Shown here in pieces: positions 11,085-64,000 of a stretch of DNA of 64,000 bases. The notes under the pieces are model-generated. The model had not been told where the DNA came from. It saw only the letters and a list, made by a program, of their open reading frames with translations, and ran no database searches. Every line of letters starts with the position of its first letter. Position 1 is the stretch's first letter. Location: the IMG/VR virus record IMGVR_UViG_3300031963_000013; one strand, given 5' to 3'. This stretch comes from a virus. The position numbers and the translations under genes are program-made.

Positions 11085-12947
11085 ATGCACATTACGCAAT
11101 CGATATTAAGCGATTTGACTACGTACATGAAGTACTCAAAGTACAAAAAAGAGTCAAAAAGAAGAGAATCTTGGAAAGAGTTAGTAGACAGGAACAAGAG
11201 CATGCACTTGAAGAAATTTCCTGAGTTAGAAAAAGAAATAGAACACGCTTATTCGTATGTGTACGATAAAAAAGTTTTGCCTTCTATGAGAAGTATGCAG
11301 TTCGCTGGTAAACCTATAGAAATATCTCCAAATAGAGTATATAACTGCGCGTATCTACCAATTGATGATATACGCTCATTTTCAGAGGTTATGTTTCTTT
11401 TGTTGGGAGGCACAGGCGTTGGATACTCTGTTCAACGACACCACATAGAAAAGCTTCCAGAAATTATAAAACCAAACGCTAACAAACACAGAAGGTTTTT
11501 GATAGGAGACAGCATCGAGGGATGGGCAGATTCGATCAAAGTATTGATTAGATCGTATTTTGAAGGCGGTTCAACGGTTGTTTTCGATTTCTCAGACATT
11601 AGAGCAAAAGGAGCCGAACTAGTTACATCAGGAGGTAAAGCACCTGGTCCTCAACCGTTAAAAGAGTGTTTGGTAAAAATCGAAGGCATTCTATCTACAA
11701 AAGAAAATAACTCAAAACTTTCTTCGATAGAAGTTCATGACATCGTTTGTCACATAGCAGATGCTGTATTAGCAGGAGGAATTCGTAGAGCAGCACTTAT
11801 CAGCTTATTTAGCGCTGATGATGAGGAAATGATAGCTGCAAAATCTGGAGCCTGGTGGGAATCAAACCCGCAACGTGGAAGAGCTAACAACTCTGCTGTG
11901 TTATTGAGAAATAAAGTAACAAGAGAGTTCTTCATGTCTCTTTGGGAAAAAATTAAAAACTCTGGTTCAGGAGAACCCGGCATATACTTGAATAACGATA
12001 AAGATTGGGGCACGAACCCTTGTTGCGAAATCGCTTTACGCCCTTACCAGTTCTGTAACCTTTGCGAAGTAAATGTTTCTGATGTGGTAGATCAAGAGGA
12101 TCTAAACAATAGAGCAAAAGCGGCATCGTTTATTGGCACCCTTCAAGCTTCTTACACAGATTTCCACTACTTAAGACCTGTTTGGCAAAGAACGACAGAG
12201 AAAGAGGCTTTAATTGGCGTTGGCATGACTGGAATAGGTTCGGGAAAAGCTCAGAAGTTCGATCTTAAAGAGGCAGCATTGGCAGTAAAAGAAGAAAACG
12301 AAAGAGTGGCTAAAATGCTTGGAATAAACACCGCTGCGAGATGCACAACTATCAAACCTTCAGGTACAAGCTCTTTGGCGTTAGGCACGTCTTCAGGCAT
12401 CCACGCGTGGCACAACGATTACTATATCAGACGCATACGTGTTGGCAAAAACGAAGCAATATATACCCACCTATCAATTCACCATCCTGAGCTAGTAGAG
12501 GACGAGTACTTTAGACCTCACGATACAGCTGTTATTTCTGTTCCGCAAAAAGCACCAGACGGAGCTATATTAAGAACAGAATCCGCTTTAGATCTTTTGC
12601 AAAGGGTAAAGTTCTTCTACGAAAATTGGATAAAACCAGGACACAGAACAGGACAAAACACTCACAACATATCTGCTACGGTTTCTATAAAAGACAACGA
12701 GTGGGAAGAAGTTGGAGAGTGGATGTGGGAAAACAAACACTGTTATAACGGACTTTCAGTTTTACCTTACTCTGATCACACATACGTTCAAGCGCCTTTC
12801 GAGGATTGCACAAAAGAAAAGTACGAAGAGATGTTGTCACACCTAACAAACTTGGATCTTACTCAAGTTGTTGAATTCGAAGACTTAACCAATCTTAGAG
12901 CAGAGGCTGCTTGCGCAGGGGGAGAGTGTACTATAACAGAATTGTAA
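11085..12947 (+). CDS. nrdJ: Class II (adenosylcobalamin-dependent) monomeric ribonucleotide reductase
   Basis: YNCAY, GTGVG, TNPCCEI, FCNLCE, IKPSGTSS, C-terminal CAGGEC; no beta subunit nearby. Confidence 0.9.
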   Translation: MHITQSILSDLTTYMKYSKYKKESKRRESWKELVDRNKSMHLKKFPELEKEIEHAYSYVYDKKVLPSMRSMQFAGKPIEISPNRVYNCAYLPIDDIRSFSEVMFLLLGGTGVGYSVQRHHIEKLPEIIKPNANKHRRFLIGDSIEGWADSIKVLIRSYFEGGSTVVFDFSDIRAKGAELVTSGGKAPGPQPLKECLVKIEGILSTKENNSKLSSIEVHDIVCHIADAVLAGGIRRAALISLFSADDEEMIAAKSGAWWESNPQRGRANNSAVLLRNKVTREFFMSLWEKIKNSGSGEPGIYLNNDKDWGTNPCCEIALRPYQFCNLCEVNVSDVVDQEDLNNRAKAASFIGTLQASYTDFHYLRPVWQRTTEKEALIGVGMTGIGSGKAQKFDLKEAALAVKEENERVAKMLGINTAARCTTIKPSGTSSLALGTSSGIHAWHNDYYIRRIRVGKNEAIYTHLSIHHPELVEDEYFRPHDTAVISVPQKAPDGAILRTESALDLLQRVKFFYENWIKPGHRTGQNTHNISATVSIKDNEWEEVGEWMWENKHCYNGLSVLPYSDHTYVQAPFEDCTKEKYEEMLSHLTNLDLTQVVEFEDLTNLRAEAACAGGECTITEL

Positions 12948-58863: not shown

Positions 58864-59166
58864 ATGGAAAATAAACAAACAGCAGCAGAATGGCTAATAG
58901 ACCAACTACGTCAACTTGCACATAACCCAAGCACACATCTAGGAATGGGTGATATAAGAGTTACACAAGGAATACTTGATGATCTTGAAGAACAAGCCAA
59001 ACAAATGGAGAAGGAGCAAGCTGAAAGAATGTATAGTGAGGCAATTGAGTTTGCTGAGTGGATTAGAATCAAGGACTTCCAAACTGCATCTAAAGATAAT
59101 TGGATTGGCTTAAATATGAAATGCTATACAACAAAAGAATTATTTGAACAATTTAAAAAGAAATAA
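58864..59166 (+). CDS. Hypothetical protein, modular-array member
   Basis: QTAAEWL + EQAKQMEKEQ + ERMYSE + FEQFKKK. Confidence 0.65.
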   Translation: MENKQTAAEWLIDQLRQLAHNPSTHLGMGDIRVTQGILDDLEEQAKQMEKEQAERMYSEAIEFAEWIRIKDFQTASKDNWIGLNMKCYTTKELFEQFKKK

Positions 59167-59402: not shown

Positions 59403-59593
59403 GTAAAAGACAAACTGCTGTTGAATGGTTAGTAGATGAGTTATTAGATGGTAAACTTTTAATGCCATCACTAATCGAAGAAGCCAAACAAATGGAGAAG
59501 GATCAAATGAAAATAATGTTCGAGAAGGGAATAAAATTCATGTCTCCACCCCCTGGAAACAGCTATATGGCAATCAAAAACCCAAAGCAATAA
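59399..59593 (+). CDS. Hypothetical protein, modular-array member
   Basis: QTAVEWL + EEAKQMEKDQ. Confidence 0.6.
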   Translation: MSKRQTAVEWLVDELLDGKLLMPSLIEEAKQMEKDQMKIMFEKGIKFMSPPPGNSYMAIKNPKQ

Positions 59594-59595
59594 AA

Positions 59596-59901
59596 ATGAA
59601 ATACACCTACGACATAAGACAGTTCAAATACAACAAAGAGACAAACACCCTGTACGCTGAAGCTTTCAACCTAGAGGCACAGCTGCCCGACGGAAGCACG
59701 CACCAAGACCCGTTCCCAAGCGGTAGGGGACAGTTCTACGTAAAGAACCACGAAACCGGCAACGAGAGAAGGTTCACTTCCCTAAAGGAACAAACGGTCA
59801 AGTACTACGACAACCACGAGGAAGAGGGCTGGACCCAAGAGTTCACGCAGTGGGTGTTCGAGTCCGAGGACGGCATCAAGTGCGTGGTGAACCTTGACTA
59901 A
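59596..59901 (+). CDS. Hypothetical protein
   Basis: 101 aa; strongly C-ending codons. Confidence 0.65.
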   Translation: MKYTYDIRQFKYNKETNTLYAEAFNLEAQLPDGSTHQDPFPSGRGQFYVKNHETGNERRFTSLKEQTVKYYDNHEEEGWTQEFTQWVFESEDGIKCVVNLD

Positions 59902-60174
59902 CCGGCGCAAAAACCGAGGGGTACCCAAGGCAACGGCCGGAAAAACCGAAATCACCAAAGAAACACGGAAGCTGGGGGATAGACACGTAGGGGGAAATAC
60001 TCCCGTCTTCACCATCATCGCCAAAAAAATTGTCCGATATGTTGCTAAGGCAAAAAAAGAGAAGAACCATGAGCACGGGTGCAGCACAGGACGCATATAA
60101 AAATAGCTACCGCAAACACCGCTGTACGAACCAACGATAATTATTTTATCGCAAGTGTGCATATTTATTGTTAG

Positions 60175-60455
60175 AATACACGCACCAGTGTAGCGAAACT
60201 AAGCAGTCACCGTTGACCGTACGGCAGTGAAACAATAACGGCACAAGTCTCACAGAGCTCAGGAACAATAGAGGTTTTAGGTATACCATCGGTAGTAGAC
60301 CAAAGGCAAGCAGGGTGGCAACGAGCGTTGGGGCACAAAAGCACTCTCGGTCCAAGTAATCGAACCCGTCGGTGGACATGGGAATAAAATTTACTTGCTC
60401 GGTGAAGGGGACTCCTGGAATCGGGCACGAGTGGTGTAATGTGGTTACTCGATAG
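60175..60455 (+). ncRNA. Candidate structured non-coding RNA
   Basis: No + strand ORF; TATTTAT at 60162; hairpins at 60177-92, 60207-30, 60280-301, 60396-427, 60428-51. Confidence 0.5.
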
Positions 60456-60497
60456 ATATTCTTTACAGTTTAGGGGGAATTCAGTACATTTACCCTT

Positions 60498-60695
60498 ATG
60501 GTATCGATACACTTCTTATACGTTCTATTTTTTACTCTCAACGTTTTGGTGGTTGCGGGAGGCATCAAGTTCTTGAGCAGCTACACTTGCAACACAGAAA
60601 GGGACATGGACACGGTCGCTTACGTTAAATTCTCGATATGGGTGAACGCCGGACTGGCCGCCCTCTGGTGTGCCCTGGCCTTCCTGGGTAACTGA
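60498..60695 (+). CDS. Small two-TM membrane protein
   Basis: Two hydrophobic segments. Confidence 0.5.
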   Translation: MVSIHFLYVLFFTLNVLVVAGGIKFLSSYTCNTERDMDTVAYVKFSIWVNAGLAALWCALAFLGN

Positions 60696-60759
60696 TTGGT
60701 TTCCAATGGGGTGCAACTCTTTGGTACCCAAGGCGTTGGTGCAACTGATTGGTTCCCAA
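60690..60759. repeat. Three phased 17-bp units, AACTnnTTG-N5-CAA (second array)
   Basis: Units at 60690, 60715 and 60743; same motif and downstream context as 49862-49980. Confidence 0.9.
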
Positions 60760-60843
60760 CAAAGAATTTTAAAAATAGTTACGAAATTATTTCTCCAGCT
60801 CGCAGGAATGTGGTATATTTACCCAGTAACAAATCACTTAAAT

Positions 60844-61227
60844 ATGTCGCATTTCGTATCAACCCAGGCCCAGTTAAGACAGTTAGAGACACGCAACTTA
60901 GTTCGCAAGCACAATTCCGATCCCATCGTATACAAGCGATTCGCCGCATCGAAGGTAAGCGATCACGTTAAGCCTATGACGGTTGTTGAATTCACCGACC
61001 TGTTGGGCCGTAAGCACCGCATCCCTGTACGCAACAAGAAAATGATGCGCGAGGCGCAGGAGTTTTTGGCCATCTTCAAGCGCGAGGTTAGCGATGTGAA
61101 CGCTATCATTAACGAGTACCCGATGTCGTACGGTAAGGTTGCGCCCGAGTTTGCGGCTGATTGCGTTAACGAACTTCTTGCTTACGGCCTTTCTGAGGAA
61201 TTGGTTAAGCGCATCATCGGTTACTAA
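60844..61227 (+). CDS. Hypothetical early protein
   Basis: ATG 60844 follows TATATTTA at 60814; the longer ORF call runs through the repeat array. Confidence 0.7.
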   Translation: MSHFVSTQAQLRQLETRNLVRKHNSDPIVYKRFAASKVSDHVKPMTVVEFTDLLGRKHRIPVRNKKMMREAQEFLAIFKREVSDVNAIINEYPMSYGKVAPEFAADCVNELLAYGLSEELVKRIIGY

Positions 61228-61272
61228 TCTGTACGCCGTTGCTGGCCTGGAAAACACCCAAAACAAACAAAC

Positions 61273-61395
61273 AGTCAGGTGGCGGAATTGGTAGACGCTA
61301 TATCAATAGTAGTGGAGACATAGAGTGGAATCTATGCCGCCCGCCAAAAAGAAAGAACTGATAAACCATTACAGGTTCGATTCCTGTCCTGACCA
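61273..61395 (+). ncRNA. tRNA-like RNA with expanded anticodon arm (not a canonical tRNA)
   Basis: Acceptor GTCAGG/CCTGAC; D-arm GCGGAATTGGTAGACGC; T-arm ACAGG-TTCGATT-CCTGT; ~53-nt insert closed by TATCA/TGATA. Confidence 0.75.
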
Positions 61396-61412
61396 CTAAA
61401 ACAATAAAAGTT

Positions 61413-61760
61413 ATGAAAAAAACAAAACAATCGGTGAGCGGCACAAGCTATCACGGCGATACGGTAAGAGCGACGCTGCTAGACATGTACGCGATACTTG
61501 GACAACCAACCGACAGGAACGGAGACAAAACAACCTACGAATGGCACATGGAGACAGAATCCGGCCACGTATTTACAGTGTACGATTGGAAGGAGTACAG
61601 ACAGTTCGGTCCAAACGAGCGCATAGAGTGGCACATCGGCGGCCACACAGGTGCTGTAACTGCGGAAGCTATGTACAAAATAGCCGATCTGCGTAACGCG
61701 CTTGAGAGAATGTCTTCGGACATGAGAGACCTTGTTTCGGGCCAGATCGAGCTCATCTAA
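61413..61760 (+). CDS. Hypothetical phage protein
   Basis: DKT.YEW...FTVYDWK...WHIGG. Confidence 0.7.
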   Translation: MKKTKQSVSGTSYHGDTVRATLLDMYAILGQPTDRNGDKTTYEWHMETESGHVFTVYDWKEYRQFGPNERIEWHIGGHTGAVTAEAMYKIADLRNALERMSSDMRDLVSGQIELI

Positions 61761-61802
61761 CACAGACACTAATCACTCACATAAACAAAAACAATAAAAG
61801 TT

Positions 61803-62615
61803 ATGAACACAAACAACAATTGGACAAGACAGAACTTAGAAGGCATCTCAATGGAAGTAGCAAAGGATAAAGCACCAGCCATCTTTGCGACCAAGCCCGC
61901 AGATTACATCAACACGAAGCTGTACCACTTCACACCGACAACCGAGATCGTTGACTACATGAAGGATCTGGGTTACGTATTAACAGACGCCAAACAGTCT
62001 AAGACAAAGATCGCACTAAGGAACAACTACGGTACACACATCGTATCCTTCCAGCACCCCGAGATATTCGTTAAGGACAACCAAGGAGGCATAGAAGCAA
62101 GGCCAACCATCGTACTACTCAACAGCCACGACGGATCGAGGCCGATACAATTCGAAATGGGACTCTTCAGACTGGTGTGCAGCAACGGCCTGATGGTGAA
62201 GTCTATGGACATGGGAAGCTTCAAAGAGAGACACACCAAGTACACCTTCCAACAGGTGAAGGACCTCATAGCATCCAAGATAGACACCCTCCCCAAGGTG
62301 GTAGAGAAGATCAACGACTGGAACTCCCTAGAGATGACGCCCAAACAGAGGCACCGCTTTGCCCTCGAGGCCCTGAAGATAAGAGCGGGAGAGGAGAGGG
62401 TGCCCGAAGATTACGAGCTGCACTCCATCCTCGAACCAAAACGCAAGGAGGACAACGGCAACACCCTCTGGAAGACGTTCAACGTTGTACAGGAGAACCT
62501 GATCAAGGGCGGCTTCCAAATGAACAACCGCACCGCCCGCGGCATCACCAACCCCGTACAGGACATGGTGCTGAACAAGGGGCTTTGGCAGTTGGCGGAA
62601 GAGTTCGCTGCTTAA
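61803..62615 (+). CDS. DUF932/DUF945-family protein
   Basis: LLNSHDGS, GLFRLVCSNG, LWKTFNVVQENLIKGG, N..LW. Confidence 0.85.
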   Translation: MNTNNNWTRQNLEGISMEVAKDKAPAIFATKPADYINTKLYHFTPTTEIVDYMKDLGYVLTDAKQSKTKIALRNNYGTHIVSFQHPEIFVKDNQGGIEARPTIVLLNSHDGSRPIQFEMGLFRLVCSNGLMVKSMDMGSFKERHTKYTFQQVKDLIASKIDTLPKVVEKINDWNSLEMTPKQRHRFALEALKIRAGEERVPEDYELHSILEPKRKEDNGNTLWKTFNVVQENLIKGGFQMNNRTARGITNPVQDMVLNKGLWQLAEEFAA

Positions 62616-62915
62616 GTCGGTCGCTAGCGCGGTGCTAAAGGAGTCTAGCGGCTTGTTAGCGCCCCGCCAAAGCGATAATTGTTGTAGACAGGGGCCCTTA
62701 GCGCTGGGGCCCTTGCTTTAAGCCAAATATACCAACAAGGGAATTTTCAAAACCGGCACTTTCATATATACAAAAACATAAGTTATGTATCGCATAGAAT
62801 ATAGAAATTACACATGGGTAGTAGTAGATACTGTTACTGGTGCCGGAATAGTGTGCTTTCCTACACAAATCGCAGCAGTAAATTGGATAAATTCTAAAAA
62901 ACAAAAACAAATAGC

Positions 62916-63131
62916 ATGAACGCAGAAAGCATCAGAAGTTACACAAAGCGGGAGCTTCAAAATCTACCGACTATCGAACAAGCTTGGGACGGTGACGAGT
63001 TAAAGATCGACGACGGAACTGTTAGGGTGTGGTTAACGAATCGCGAGAACAGGCAGTACAACGGAGATTATACGATCGAAGTACTAATGAATGGCCGGTG
63101 GGTACAGAGCAATCAAAATTTTCCAATCTAA
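62916..63131 (+). CDS. Hypothetical protein
   Basis: Leader AAAAACAAATAGCATGA shared with the next gene. Confidence 0.6.
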   Translation: MNAESIRSYTKRELQNLPTIEQAWDGDELKIDDGTVRVWLTNRENRQYNGDYTIEVLMNGRWVQSNQNFPI

Positions 63132-63143
63132 AAAACAAATAGC

Positions 63144-63587
63144 ATGAGCAAAAAATCAAACGAAATCGCGTTCGCAGTAAAATCGAAGTACTTTTCGGTA
63201 TACGAAGCGTACAAAAAGGAATTAGAAAAGATCGGGTACAAGTGGAACCACAATTTCAACCCGTTCCAAGAGCTAATAACAAAAGACAGAACGTGCATAT
63301 ATGTAGGCACAGGCTGGCAGGGTTACTGCGATGCACCGATGATGTCATTCAGCAACCCCGGCCGATGCGCTAGAGTGTACAATTTGGATAGCGAGTTCGA
63401 AGCGGCGGTATCTTACGCTAAGTCAGAGTACGATTGCCACAAGCTTGTGGCAATTGAAAAAGTGATTCTCAACCGCGACTATGTTGTCGAAGTGTACCAC
63501 GATAGGATAGTAGTCTGCGGGGAAACGTTCTATCAACCAGAGGTTACAGCGCTTTTCAGGGCGGCAAAAAACGCAGGCTTAGTGTAA
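63144..63587 (+). CDS. Hypothetical protein
   Basis: 147 aa; shared leader. Confidence 0.65.
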   Translation: MSKKSNEIAFAVKSKYFSVYEAYKKELEKIGYKWNHNFNPFQELITKDRTCIYVGTGWQGYCDAPMMSFSNPGRCARVYNLDSEFEAAVSYAKSEYDCHKLVAIEKVILNRDYVVEVYHDRIVVCGETFYQPEVTALFRAAKNAGLV

Positions 63588-63644
63588 AAAGCCACCGCGG
63601 GCCAGGGGAAATTTTCTAAACAAAGCAAAATCGTATATTCAAGT

Positions 63645-63818
63645 ATGGACAAACAATCAAGCACACTCGTAAAAGGCCTGCTGGCCGTAGCGAAAGAGTA
63701 CATCGAGTACCGGTACAAGAAAGAAGTGATATCGCTCGAACTCGAAGACGGCAGCGGCAGAAAGTTTATAGTGGTTACCAAGGACCAGCCACTGAAAAGA
63801 CAGTTCATTCGACTCTAA
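63645..63818 (+). CDS. 57-aa hypothetical protein (not in ORF track), possibly leaderless
   Basis: MDKQSST...ELEDGSGRKF; TATATTCA at 63634 immediately before the ATG. Confidence 0.55.
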   Translation: MDKQSSTLVKGLLAVAKEYIEYRYKKEVISLELEDGSGRKFIVVTKDQPLKRQFIRL

Positions 63819-63869
63819 AAAACCACCCAGACAACCAAATAATAAGTAAATTTAAACAAAATCAAAGTT

Positions 63870-64000
63870 ATGTACACAAACATTCAACAAGCGATCGCAG
63901 CGGTAGAGTCTGCGTATCCGTCTATTTTCACAAAACAGGACGTTATCAAGCTGTTAAACAACATCGACATCAAAGACGAGGAACCCATAGCGGTAAACGT
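63870..64000 (+). CDS. Hypothetical protein, 3'-truncated
   Basis: AAAATCAAAGTTATG leader; frame open to the window end. Confidence 0.55.
   Translation, partial: MYTNIQQAIAAVESAYPSIFTKQDVIKLLNNIDIKDEEPIAVN

Follow-up and report, generated by a model that had tools for sequence, protein, structure and literature searches.

Small stable RNAs that resemble tRNA have been known from bacteriophages T4 and T5 for decades. RNA1 of the cultured coliphage T5 (NC_005859, 30501-30644) is encoded within the T5 tRNA cluster under the annotation "tRNA-like stable RNA with unknown functions", and the species 1 and 2 RNAs of T4 (rnaC and rnaD) are small stable RNAs at the end of the T4 tRNA cluster. Here we describe an element of this kind at positions 61273-61395 of a 64,000-nucleotide stretch of viral DNA (IMG/VR record IMGVR_UViG_3300031963_000013; the whole stretch is hereafter called the window). 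The element is very probably a genuine member of a family of anticodon-less, tRNA-like phage RNAs that keep the acceptor stem, the D-arm and the T-arm (together, the shell) and carry an insert, the core, where a tRNA has its anticodon arm. As far as the literature searched and Rfam show, the combination appears to be new: one near-invariant frame in hundreds of phages, hypervariable structured cores, the exchange of these cores like cassettes, and their arrangement in arrays.

T5 RNA1 has the plan of the window element. Its acceptor stem and normal T-arm are accompanied by a Leu-type D-arm whose loop core is the same, and ~83 nt stand where the anticodon arm would be; it matches the Rfam tRNA model end to end with a large insertion (24 bits). 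However, its minihelix has another sequence than the AGTCAGG type described here, it is present in a single copy in T5, and it is not known to belong to a family with swappable cores; T5 is also a cultured phage, whereas the family shell matches no deposited phage record. A canonical T-arm and an acceptor-like stem also stand at the end of T4 rnaC, which has no match to the Leu-type D-arm, is unrelated in sequence, and fits tRNA models weakly (17.5 bits to tRNA-Sec). Class II tRNA-Leu of bacteria and phages has the same D-arm, elbow, T-arm, U48, and A73 as the window element, which, unlike these tRNAs, has neither an anticodon stem-loop nor a regular long variable arm. The acceptor stem, D-arm, T-arm, and A73 that are conserved in the family are also the parts kept in the minimal substrates of Escherichia coli leucyl-tRNA synthetase (LeuRS), as the account of Larkin et al. 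(2002) given in PMC9976931 has it. These substrates are laboratory constructs without anticodon and variable arms, whereas the phage RNA is natural.

In transfer-messenger RNA (tmRNA), as in the window element, a large insert occupies the place of the anticodon stem, between the two halves of a tRNA-like domain. A tmRNA lacks a D-stem, carries a G3.U70 pair for alanine identity, and contains pseudoknots and a tag open reading frame (ORF) with a resume codon; none of these distinguishing features was found in the window element. Ponchon and Dardel are said to have engineered a tRNA scaffold in which an arbitrary structured RNA replaces the anticodon arm and which the cell processes and stabilises. 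That scaffold follows the same design logic but is man-made, and we found no natural phage counterpart with swappable cores in the literature searched. Neither this literature nor Rfam yielded a description of the AGTCAGG-minihelix family, and a 2026 preprint on bacterial tRNA mimics treats other motifs.

To describe the shell of the window element (Table 1), we used the Rfam tRNA model (RF00005), which matched it end to end with 31.3 bits, above the gathering threshold of 29 (E value of 1e-4 for the 501 nt searched); this match was obtained with permissive filters on the 501-nt stretch, whereas a default run over the whole window missed the element because of its filters. The model treated 61 nt as an insertion that replaces 17 anticodon-arm positions. 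ARAGORN called neither a tRNA nor a tmRNA anywhere in the 64-kb window, and the element failed a register test for an anticodon arm (5-bp stem and 7-nt loop with U33 and a purine at position 37). Six of the seven acceptor pairs are Watson-Crick and the first is an A1.C72 mismatch; acceptor stem, D-arm, and T-arm follow one another in cloverleaf order. Enterobacterial tRNA-Leu genes are 100% identical to the window over the 22 nt at 61277-61298, which contain the D-arm. The 26-nt 5' half of the family (acceptor 5' strand, positions 8-9, and Leu D-arm) aligned to 61273-61298 with 0 mismatches, as did the 23-nt 3' pattern of the family to the 3' part of the element, with U48, A73, and C74 all present. 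The only departure from the family 3' half is at position 72 (C for U), and A1.C72 recurs in three other elements. Each shell half had one match in the window, compared with 0 in 100 shuffles.

An initial annotation of the window had described a tRNA-shaped RNA with a structured domain in place of its anticodon loop, and these results bear it out: all the parts that it named are present, no normal tRNA is called, no anticodon can be assigned, and both the acceptor/T minihelix and the D/T elbow are retained. As its predicted parts stand, the element cannot decode because it has no anticodon loop. A 21-codon ATG-to-TAA frame at 61334-61399 spans the T-arm and the acceptor strand along with the 3' part of the core, and we regard it as a chance frame.

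Table 1. Parts of the tRNA-like element and its sibling copies (window positions unless a contig is named)
Feature	Coordinates	Strand	Details
tRNA-shaped RNA gene, whole	61273-61395	+	123 nt, tRNA positions 1-73; Rfam tRNA match spans exactly these coordinates
Acceptor stem, 5' strand AGTCAGG	61273-61279	+	pairs with 61388-61394
U8	61280	+	followed by G9
Leu-type D-arm	61282-61298	+	3-bp stem, long loop; A14, A15, G18G19, A20a
Core in place of anticodon arm and variable region	61299-61370	+	72 nt; last base is U48 (61370)
Possible closing stem TATCA/TGATA	61301-61305 with 61359-61363	+	from sequence complementarity; encloses 53 nt
Core hairpin CATAGA/TCTATG	61319-61336	+	6-bp stem, 6-nt loop
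CCGCCCGCC run	61337-61345	+	complementary to D-stem 5' strand and position 9; potential alternative pairing
T-arm	61371-61387	+	5-bp stem, 7-nt loop TTCGATT; exact match to family T-arm
Acceptor 3' strand CCTGACC and discriminator A73	61388-61395	+	A73 at 61395
C74 and A-rich 17-nt spacer, then ATG of next ORF (61413-61760)	61396-61415	+	from sequence and ORF list
Sibling copies	11099-11199, 11416-11513, and 11734-11840 of contig L251		equivalent to ~71.8-72.5 kb; cores all different

We found the same shell in at least 240 IMG/VR phage contigs, and the cores of the 370 distinct elements that we collected are of 262 unrelated types. The acceptor heptamer AGTCAGG is the hallmark of the family (323 of the 370); elements of this type are 53-190 nt long, with a median of 104, and have cores of ~3 to ~140 nt. 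At least 120 IMG/VR contigs contained the 26-nt 5' half without a mismatch, and in a separate search at least 120 contained the exact 26-nt 3' half. A pattern that required only the D-arm and, 55-85 nt further on, the T-loop was matched in 25 IMG/VR contigs, and about half of these share the acceptor and T-stem though the pattern did not require it. Collection with exact patterns accounts for part of the invariance of each arm, and the unbiased evidence is that of the independent half, of the leader and trailer statistics, and of the D-arm-anchored search. In contrast to the IMG/VR counts, the 5' half occurred in only five small contigs of metagenome-assembled genomes (MAGs; one genome for each of 185,579 species), and neither arm occurred in any of 50,697 deposited phage records. 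Because of this distribution, we conclude that the family is a gene of uncultured phages and not a host tRNA. The search with the two arms, which had been suggested as a way to find relatives with variable inserts, thus returned hundreds of them, and the element is not the single curiosity that it had seemed. In phage SPP1, neither the Rfam tRNA model (E values up to 0.1) nor a pattern search gave a match, although large inserts may escape the filters.

Ordinary tRNA genes were found nearby in 75 of the first 144 loci. A Bacteroidota-type TAnnTTTG box stands just upstream of 26 of 290 elements, in 10 of these 4 nt before position 1; there is none upstream of the window element. Hints of Bacteroidota hosts come solely from MAG labels and this box. 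In four loci (L030, L033, L040, and L001), an insert of 50-80 nt lies between the T-stem and the 3' acceptor strand and forms a strong hairpin with the loop TAGAAAT; in two of the four, it is followed by a Bacteroidota-type TAnnTTTG promoter box. Either a small mobile element or a second site of insertion may account for it.

The window itself belongs to a phage, with all large ORFs on one strand, among them those for a DnaB-like helicase, ribonucleotide reductase, DNA polymerase, and GroEL. Through the protein encoded at 61413-61760, we found close relatives on four metagenome contigs, the longest of 151 kb, and each has the element with 100% identity. The three of these contigs that are long enough to reach there carry three sibling copies 10.4 kb downstream, ~550-1,300 nt past genes for tRNA-Ser(UGA) and tRNA-Met. 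The siblings score 42.8, 43.4, and 31.9 bits with the Rfam model, compared with 31.3 for the window copy, and two of them fold as cloverleaf shells in the energy model. The window element is one of four copies in a phage of roughly 150 kb. Genes for tRNA-Leu(UAG) and tRNA-Arg(UCU) lie 3.5 kb beyond the siblings in L251. Within IMG/VR, no relative of either flanking protein was found.

We then considered at which level the shell is conserved. Variants of the acceptor stem are nearly all transitions that keep a wobble pair, and the other acceptor types, seen in the D-arm-anchored set, change on both strands. Compensatory variants also occur in the T-stem and the D-stem across the family. Conservation ends at tRNA positions 1 and 74. 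A U precedes position 1 in 236 of 290 leaders, and C74 follows 290 of 297 elements; within the AGTCAGG type, U48 is kept in 275 and A73 in 295 of the 323 elements. Bacterial RNase P prefers a U at position -1. The signals for tRNA-type processing that had been proposed are borne by the family as a whole, where U-1 and C74 would fit RNase P cleavage and 3' processing. Ordinary tRNA-Leu(UAA) genes on the same contigs have other stems that vary freely; hence, the near-invariance is a property of the family and not of tRNA-Leu genes in these phages. We conclude from these substitution patterns that the shell is selected as an RNA.

The cores show the opposite face of the family, namely diversity. 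The 370 cores fell into 262 clusters, and across 80 core clusters no 5- to 7-mer rose above shuffled expectation; GGTTAAT and GATAAC, which had seemed recurrent by eye, were rejected as shared motifs on the same count. The cores are structured nonetheless. Their helices show compensatory base changes within clusters, and hairpins capped by GNRA loops are in excess (66, compared with 31.3 +/- 5.2 in shuffles), whereas generic hairpins with 4-nt loops are not enriched. Random decay without covariation, which would have told against a functional RNA, was not what we observed, since both cores and shell change in a compensatory manner. In the folding models, the acceptor stem was likelier with the natural than with a shuffled core in 98 of 104 elements, and the D-stem had a probability of 0.47 with natural cores versus 0.28 with shuffled ones; as modelled, the shell is less perturbed in its folding by natural cores than by shuffled cores. 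When eight loci (~30 elements) were scanned permissively with Rfam, the matches were to tRNA and to one freshwater-1 RNA, and no known family was found within the cores. The freshwater-1 match (RF02979, L157 4124-4186) scores 70.1 bits, just below its gathering threshold of 72, and lies amid tRNAs and tRNA-like genes of a related phage contig.

We observed that cores are exchanged at a fixed site. Seven contigs with both flanks 88%-95% identical hold five unrelated cores at one site; the divergence starts abruptly ~12 nt into the 5' arm, and identity resumes at the T-arm. Three of these five core types recur in other, unrelated contigs. Copies are also arrayed, with eight in 3.2 kb in contig L152, every core being different, and some copies are spaced just 49-59 nt apart. 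A canonical anticodon arm (5-bp stem and 7-nt loop, in register) is present in 3-4 of the 370 elements (~1%), namely Lys-UUU twice, Ile-UAU, and one Cys, and the tRNA-Lys(UUU) member scores 66.3 bits as a normal tRNA. The family probably originated from phage tRNA genes, as the rare members with the same minihelix are canonical tRNA-Lys and tRNA-Ile. Genes of canonical appearance for tRNA-Lys(UUU) or tRNA-Ile(UAU) that share the acceptor/T-arm minihelix of the family lie at L038 13031-13101 (minus strand), in L096, and at L195 4958-5030.

The core of the window copy is a singleton among the 262 types and has no exact match in IMG/VR. Its hairpin is present in every predicted fold, with pair probabilities of 0.97-0.999. 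The TATCA/TGATA pairing, which had been taken for an anticodon stem that closes the core, reached a probability of only ~0.35 in the isolated core and was missing both from the minimum free energy (MFE) fold of the whole element and from the fold that enforces the shell pairs alone. Of the structure first proposed for this region, the hairpin is thus robust and the closing stem weak. A search of the 501-nt stretch with Rfam at E values up to 10 returned only tRNA, and no intron, ribozyme, or tmRNA family. At 53-72 nt, the insert is far below the size of a group I or group II intron.

We reasoned that the element is a tRNA-scaffolded non-coding RNA with the core as its variable working part, and we give this reading, with the mechanism that follows, a little more than an even chance. 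The element would be transcribed together with its flanking genes, and its shell would direct a 5' cut by RNase P, 3' trimming, and CCA addition, giving a stable RNA of ~126 nt. As a by-product, the mRNA would be cut just upstream of the next ORF, 17 nt before its ATG. The RNA may then be leucylated and bound by EF-Tu; leucylation is plausible because every known identity element of E. coli LeuRS is retained, the window element having A73, A14, the A15-U48 Levitt pair, G18G19, A20a, U54-A58, and G19-C56. According to PMC9976931, A15-U48, G18G19, and A20a are leucine identity elements, and E. coli LeuRS disregards the anticodon and the variable arm and still charges tRNA-Leu without them as long as A73 and the contacts between D-loop and T-loop are preserved (citing Larkin et al., 2002). 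Specificity would reside in the core, which would act in trans on a partner, either protein or RNA, and most plausibly in conflict between phage and host or between phages. We propose such a role because of the structure of the cores, their extreme diversity, and their cassette-like exchange between close relatives.

Among the roles put forward in the initial annotation, that of a scaffold for a small RNA fits best, given a frame that is near-invariant among the 323 elements of the AGTCAGG type and 262 swappable structured core types, and the decoy roles fit poorly. With no anticodon loop to imitate, the element is unlikely to be a decoy for anticodon nucleases, and a decoy for sensors of uncharged tRNA on the ribosome would need the anticodon too. 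A bolder version of the scaffold reading, which we hold to be doubtful, has an invariant tRNA-Leu chassis, matured by RNase P and CCA addition and possibly leucylated and bound by EF-Tu, that displays and stabilises a large repertoire of rapidly exchanged, structured RNA "warheads". Each core type would then bind or mimic another target of the host or of rival phages, for example an RNA-guided or RNA-binding defence protein or an RNA like a type III antitoxin; the arrays of up to eight copies would be a counter-defence arsenal, and the identical arms would permit exchange by recombination.

Several observations weigh against a tRNA-scaffolded working RNA. The near-invariant sequence of the shell exceeds what structure needs, and this reading does not account for it. 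Some bacterial LeuRS enzymes, such as that of Aquifex, use the variable arm, and the rules of E. coli may not be those of the host. Clustering of 1,821 flanking ORFs revealed no protein family in more than 10 of ~140 loci, DUF932 being the commonest. Complementary matches of the window core within the 64-kb window do not exceed 10-11 nt, a length that we judged to be that of chance, without a shuffle control. No diverged version of this core, in which covariation might show, was found. In addition, the window copy is atypical. It has the A1.C72 mismatch, a C rather than a U at position -1, and the CCGCCCGCC run, which in the MFE fold pairs with 61279-61285; this fold has -36.4 kcal/mol versus -29.7 kcal/mol for the cloverleaf, so that the D-stem is outcompeted by 6.7 kcal/mol and is left with a probability of 1e-4, and the T-stem with one of 0.28. 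The window copy might therefore fold differently from its relatives or be weakened. Energy models leave out the tertiary contacts of tRNA, and the alternative pairing may be an artefact of the model, a real alternative conformer, or a sign of weakening.

Such features raise the question of whether the window copy, which lies 10 kb from its three siblings, is a paralogue in decay that no longer has a function. The mismatch at the first pair, the C at -1, a core run that disrupts the D-stem in the model while two siblings fold as cloverleaf shells, and a Rfam score below those of all three siblings point in this direction. However, its 26-nt 5' half and 23 nt of its 3' half are free of errors relative to the family consensus, all tertiary and identity positions are intact, A1.C72 is not peculiar to this copy, and an identical copy is kept in four independent metagenome contigs; with the limits of the energy model, we consider decay improbable. 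Less probable still is a decoding tRNA, either with an intron of 46-53 nt to be removed or built like a tmRNA whose core is read. With introns allowed, ARAGORN can be made to report a tRNA-Ser(AGA) with an intron of 46 nt; the topology of a tRNA-like domain with an insert at the anticodon stem is shared with tmRNA, the codons TGA TAA close one frame of the core, and the few canonical members include Lys-UUU and Ile-UAU tRNAs with the same minihelix. Yet the forced anticodons are arbitrary and differ among three near-identical relatives (Met, Ser, and Phe), a Leu body that lacks a long variable arm could not credibly bear a Ser anticodon, and an anticodon arm stands in register in only ~1% of the family. 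We rejected the intron-bearing tRNA on these inconsistent anticodons and on the absence of any Rfam intron or ribozyme match, which also agrees with the earlier view that the insert is no recognisable intron. We rejected the tmRNA as well, since ARAGORN reported none, Rfam had no tmRNA match, pair 3-70 is U-A and not the G.U of tmRNA, and cores of ~3 to ~140 nt share no ORF or motif, which rules out a common tag ORF.

The two other alternatives concern the family as a whole. tRNAs are known to punctuate mitochondrial transcripts, and the shell might likewise serve only for cuts by RNase P and RNase Z that free the A-rich leader of the downstream ORF, with the core as filler. The element runs in the same direction as its neighbours and stops 17 nt short of the ATG at 61413, the sibling at L251 11416-11513 has a nearly identical downstream spacer and ATG, an ORF starts 10-40 nt after 96 of 321 elements, and U-1 in the leader and C74 in the trailer are in keeping with such cuts. 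We nevertheless regard punctuation as unlikely: ~70% of elements have no ORF directly after them, some copies follow each other at only 49-59 nt, more distant homologues of the 61413-61760 protein have no element upstream, and compensatory changes, an excess of GNRA loops, and recurrent core types are not expected of filler. Structure would also suffice for the cuts, and the invariant sequence would be left unexplained. That sequence would be accounted for if the element were a cassette or selfish element at the DNA level, with the arms as recombination sites or homology arms and the tRNA shape as an ancestral relic. The arms are near-identical across very different phages in which tRNA-Leu genes vary, cores are replaced wholesale at one site among close relatives, the same core types turn up in different contexts, and the tandem arrays and the lack of a conserved neighbour gene suit a mobile unit. 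On the other hand, changes in the arms keep pairing, by wobble transitions or compensatory pairs, and conservation is bounded exactly by tRNA positions 1 and 74; U8, A14, G18G19, U48, U54-A58, and A73 are kept; the cores co-vary as RNA helices; and no recombinase or endonuclease gene is associated with the family loci. Recombination between arms could explain the shuffling without being the function, and we think it improbable that the element acts as DNA, about as improbable as decay.

The family shows that tRNA-like stable RNAs are not confined to two coliphages, and a constant frame with a hypervariable, structured, swappable core is a pattern typical of molecules of conflict or of specific recognition. 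The family offers a concrete way into an old question, through the targets of the individual cores and the possible charging of the frame with leucine. For annotation, it matters that tRNA finders overlook such genes or, in intron mode, give them arbitrary anticodons. A natural scaffold for RNA expression, if it is one, would be of direct use in RNA engineering.

We also noted several features in the surroundings of the element. The G+C content jumps from ~0.33 to 0.44-0.52 at ~59,500 and remains at this level through the rest of the window, and the element lies inside this block of small ORFs (59500-64000). Three 22-nt direct repeats at 60685-60759, spaced 25-28 nt apart, overlap the start of the ORF at 60670-61227; the best copies, at 60710 and 60738, contain the partial palindrome TTGG-n3-CCAA, and a related 12-mer lies at 59920. 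These repeats are probably the operator array from which the initial annotation had the element transcribed. A scan for sigma-70 promoters and terminators near the element gave results at or below shuffle level. Between 59900 and 60500, ~600 nt of G+C-rich DNA have no convincing ORF and no Rfam match at E values up to 1, and short repeats occur there, among them AACCGGCGCAAAAACCGA at 59900 and 59932; this segment could be an RNA of a new kind or a regulatory region. Finally, a 43-nt direct repeat with 84% identity (58990-59032 and 59477-59519) lies inside two small ORFs, which suggests that it reflects duplicated small genes.

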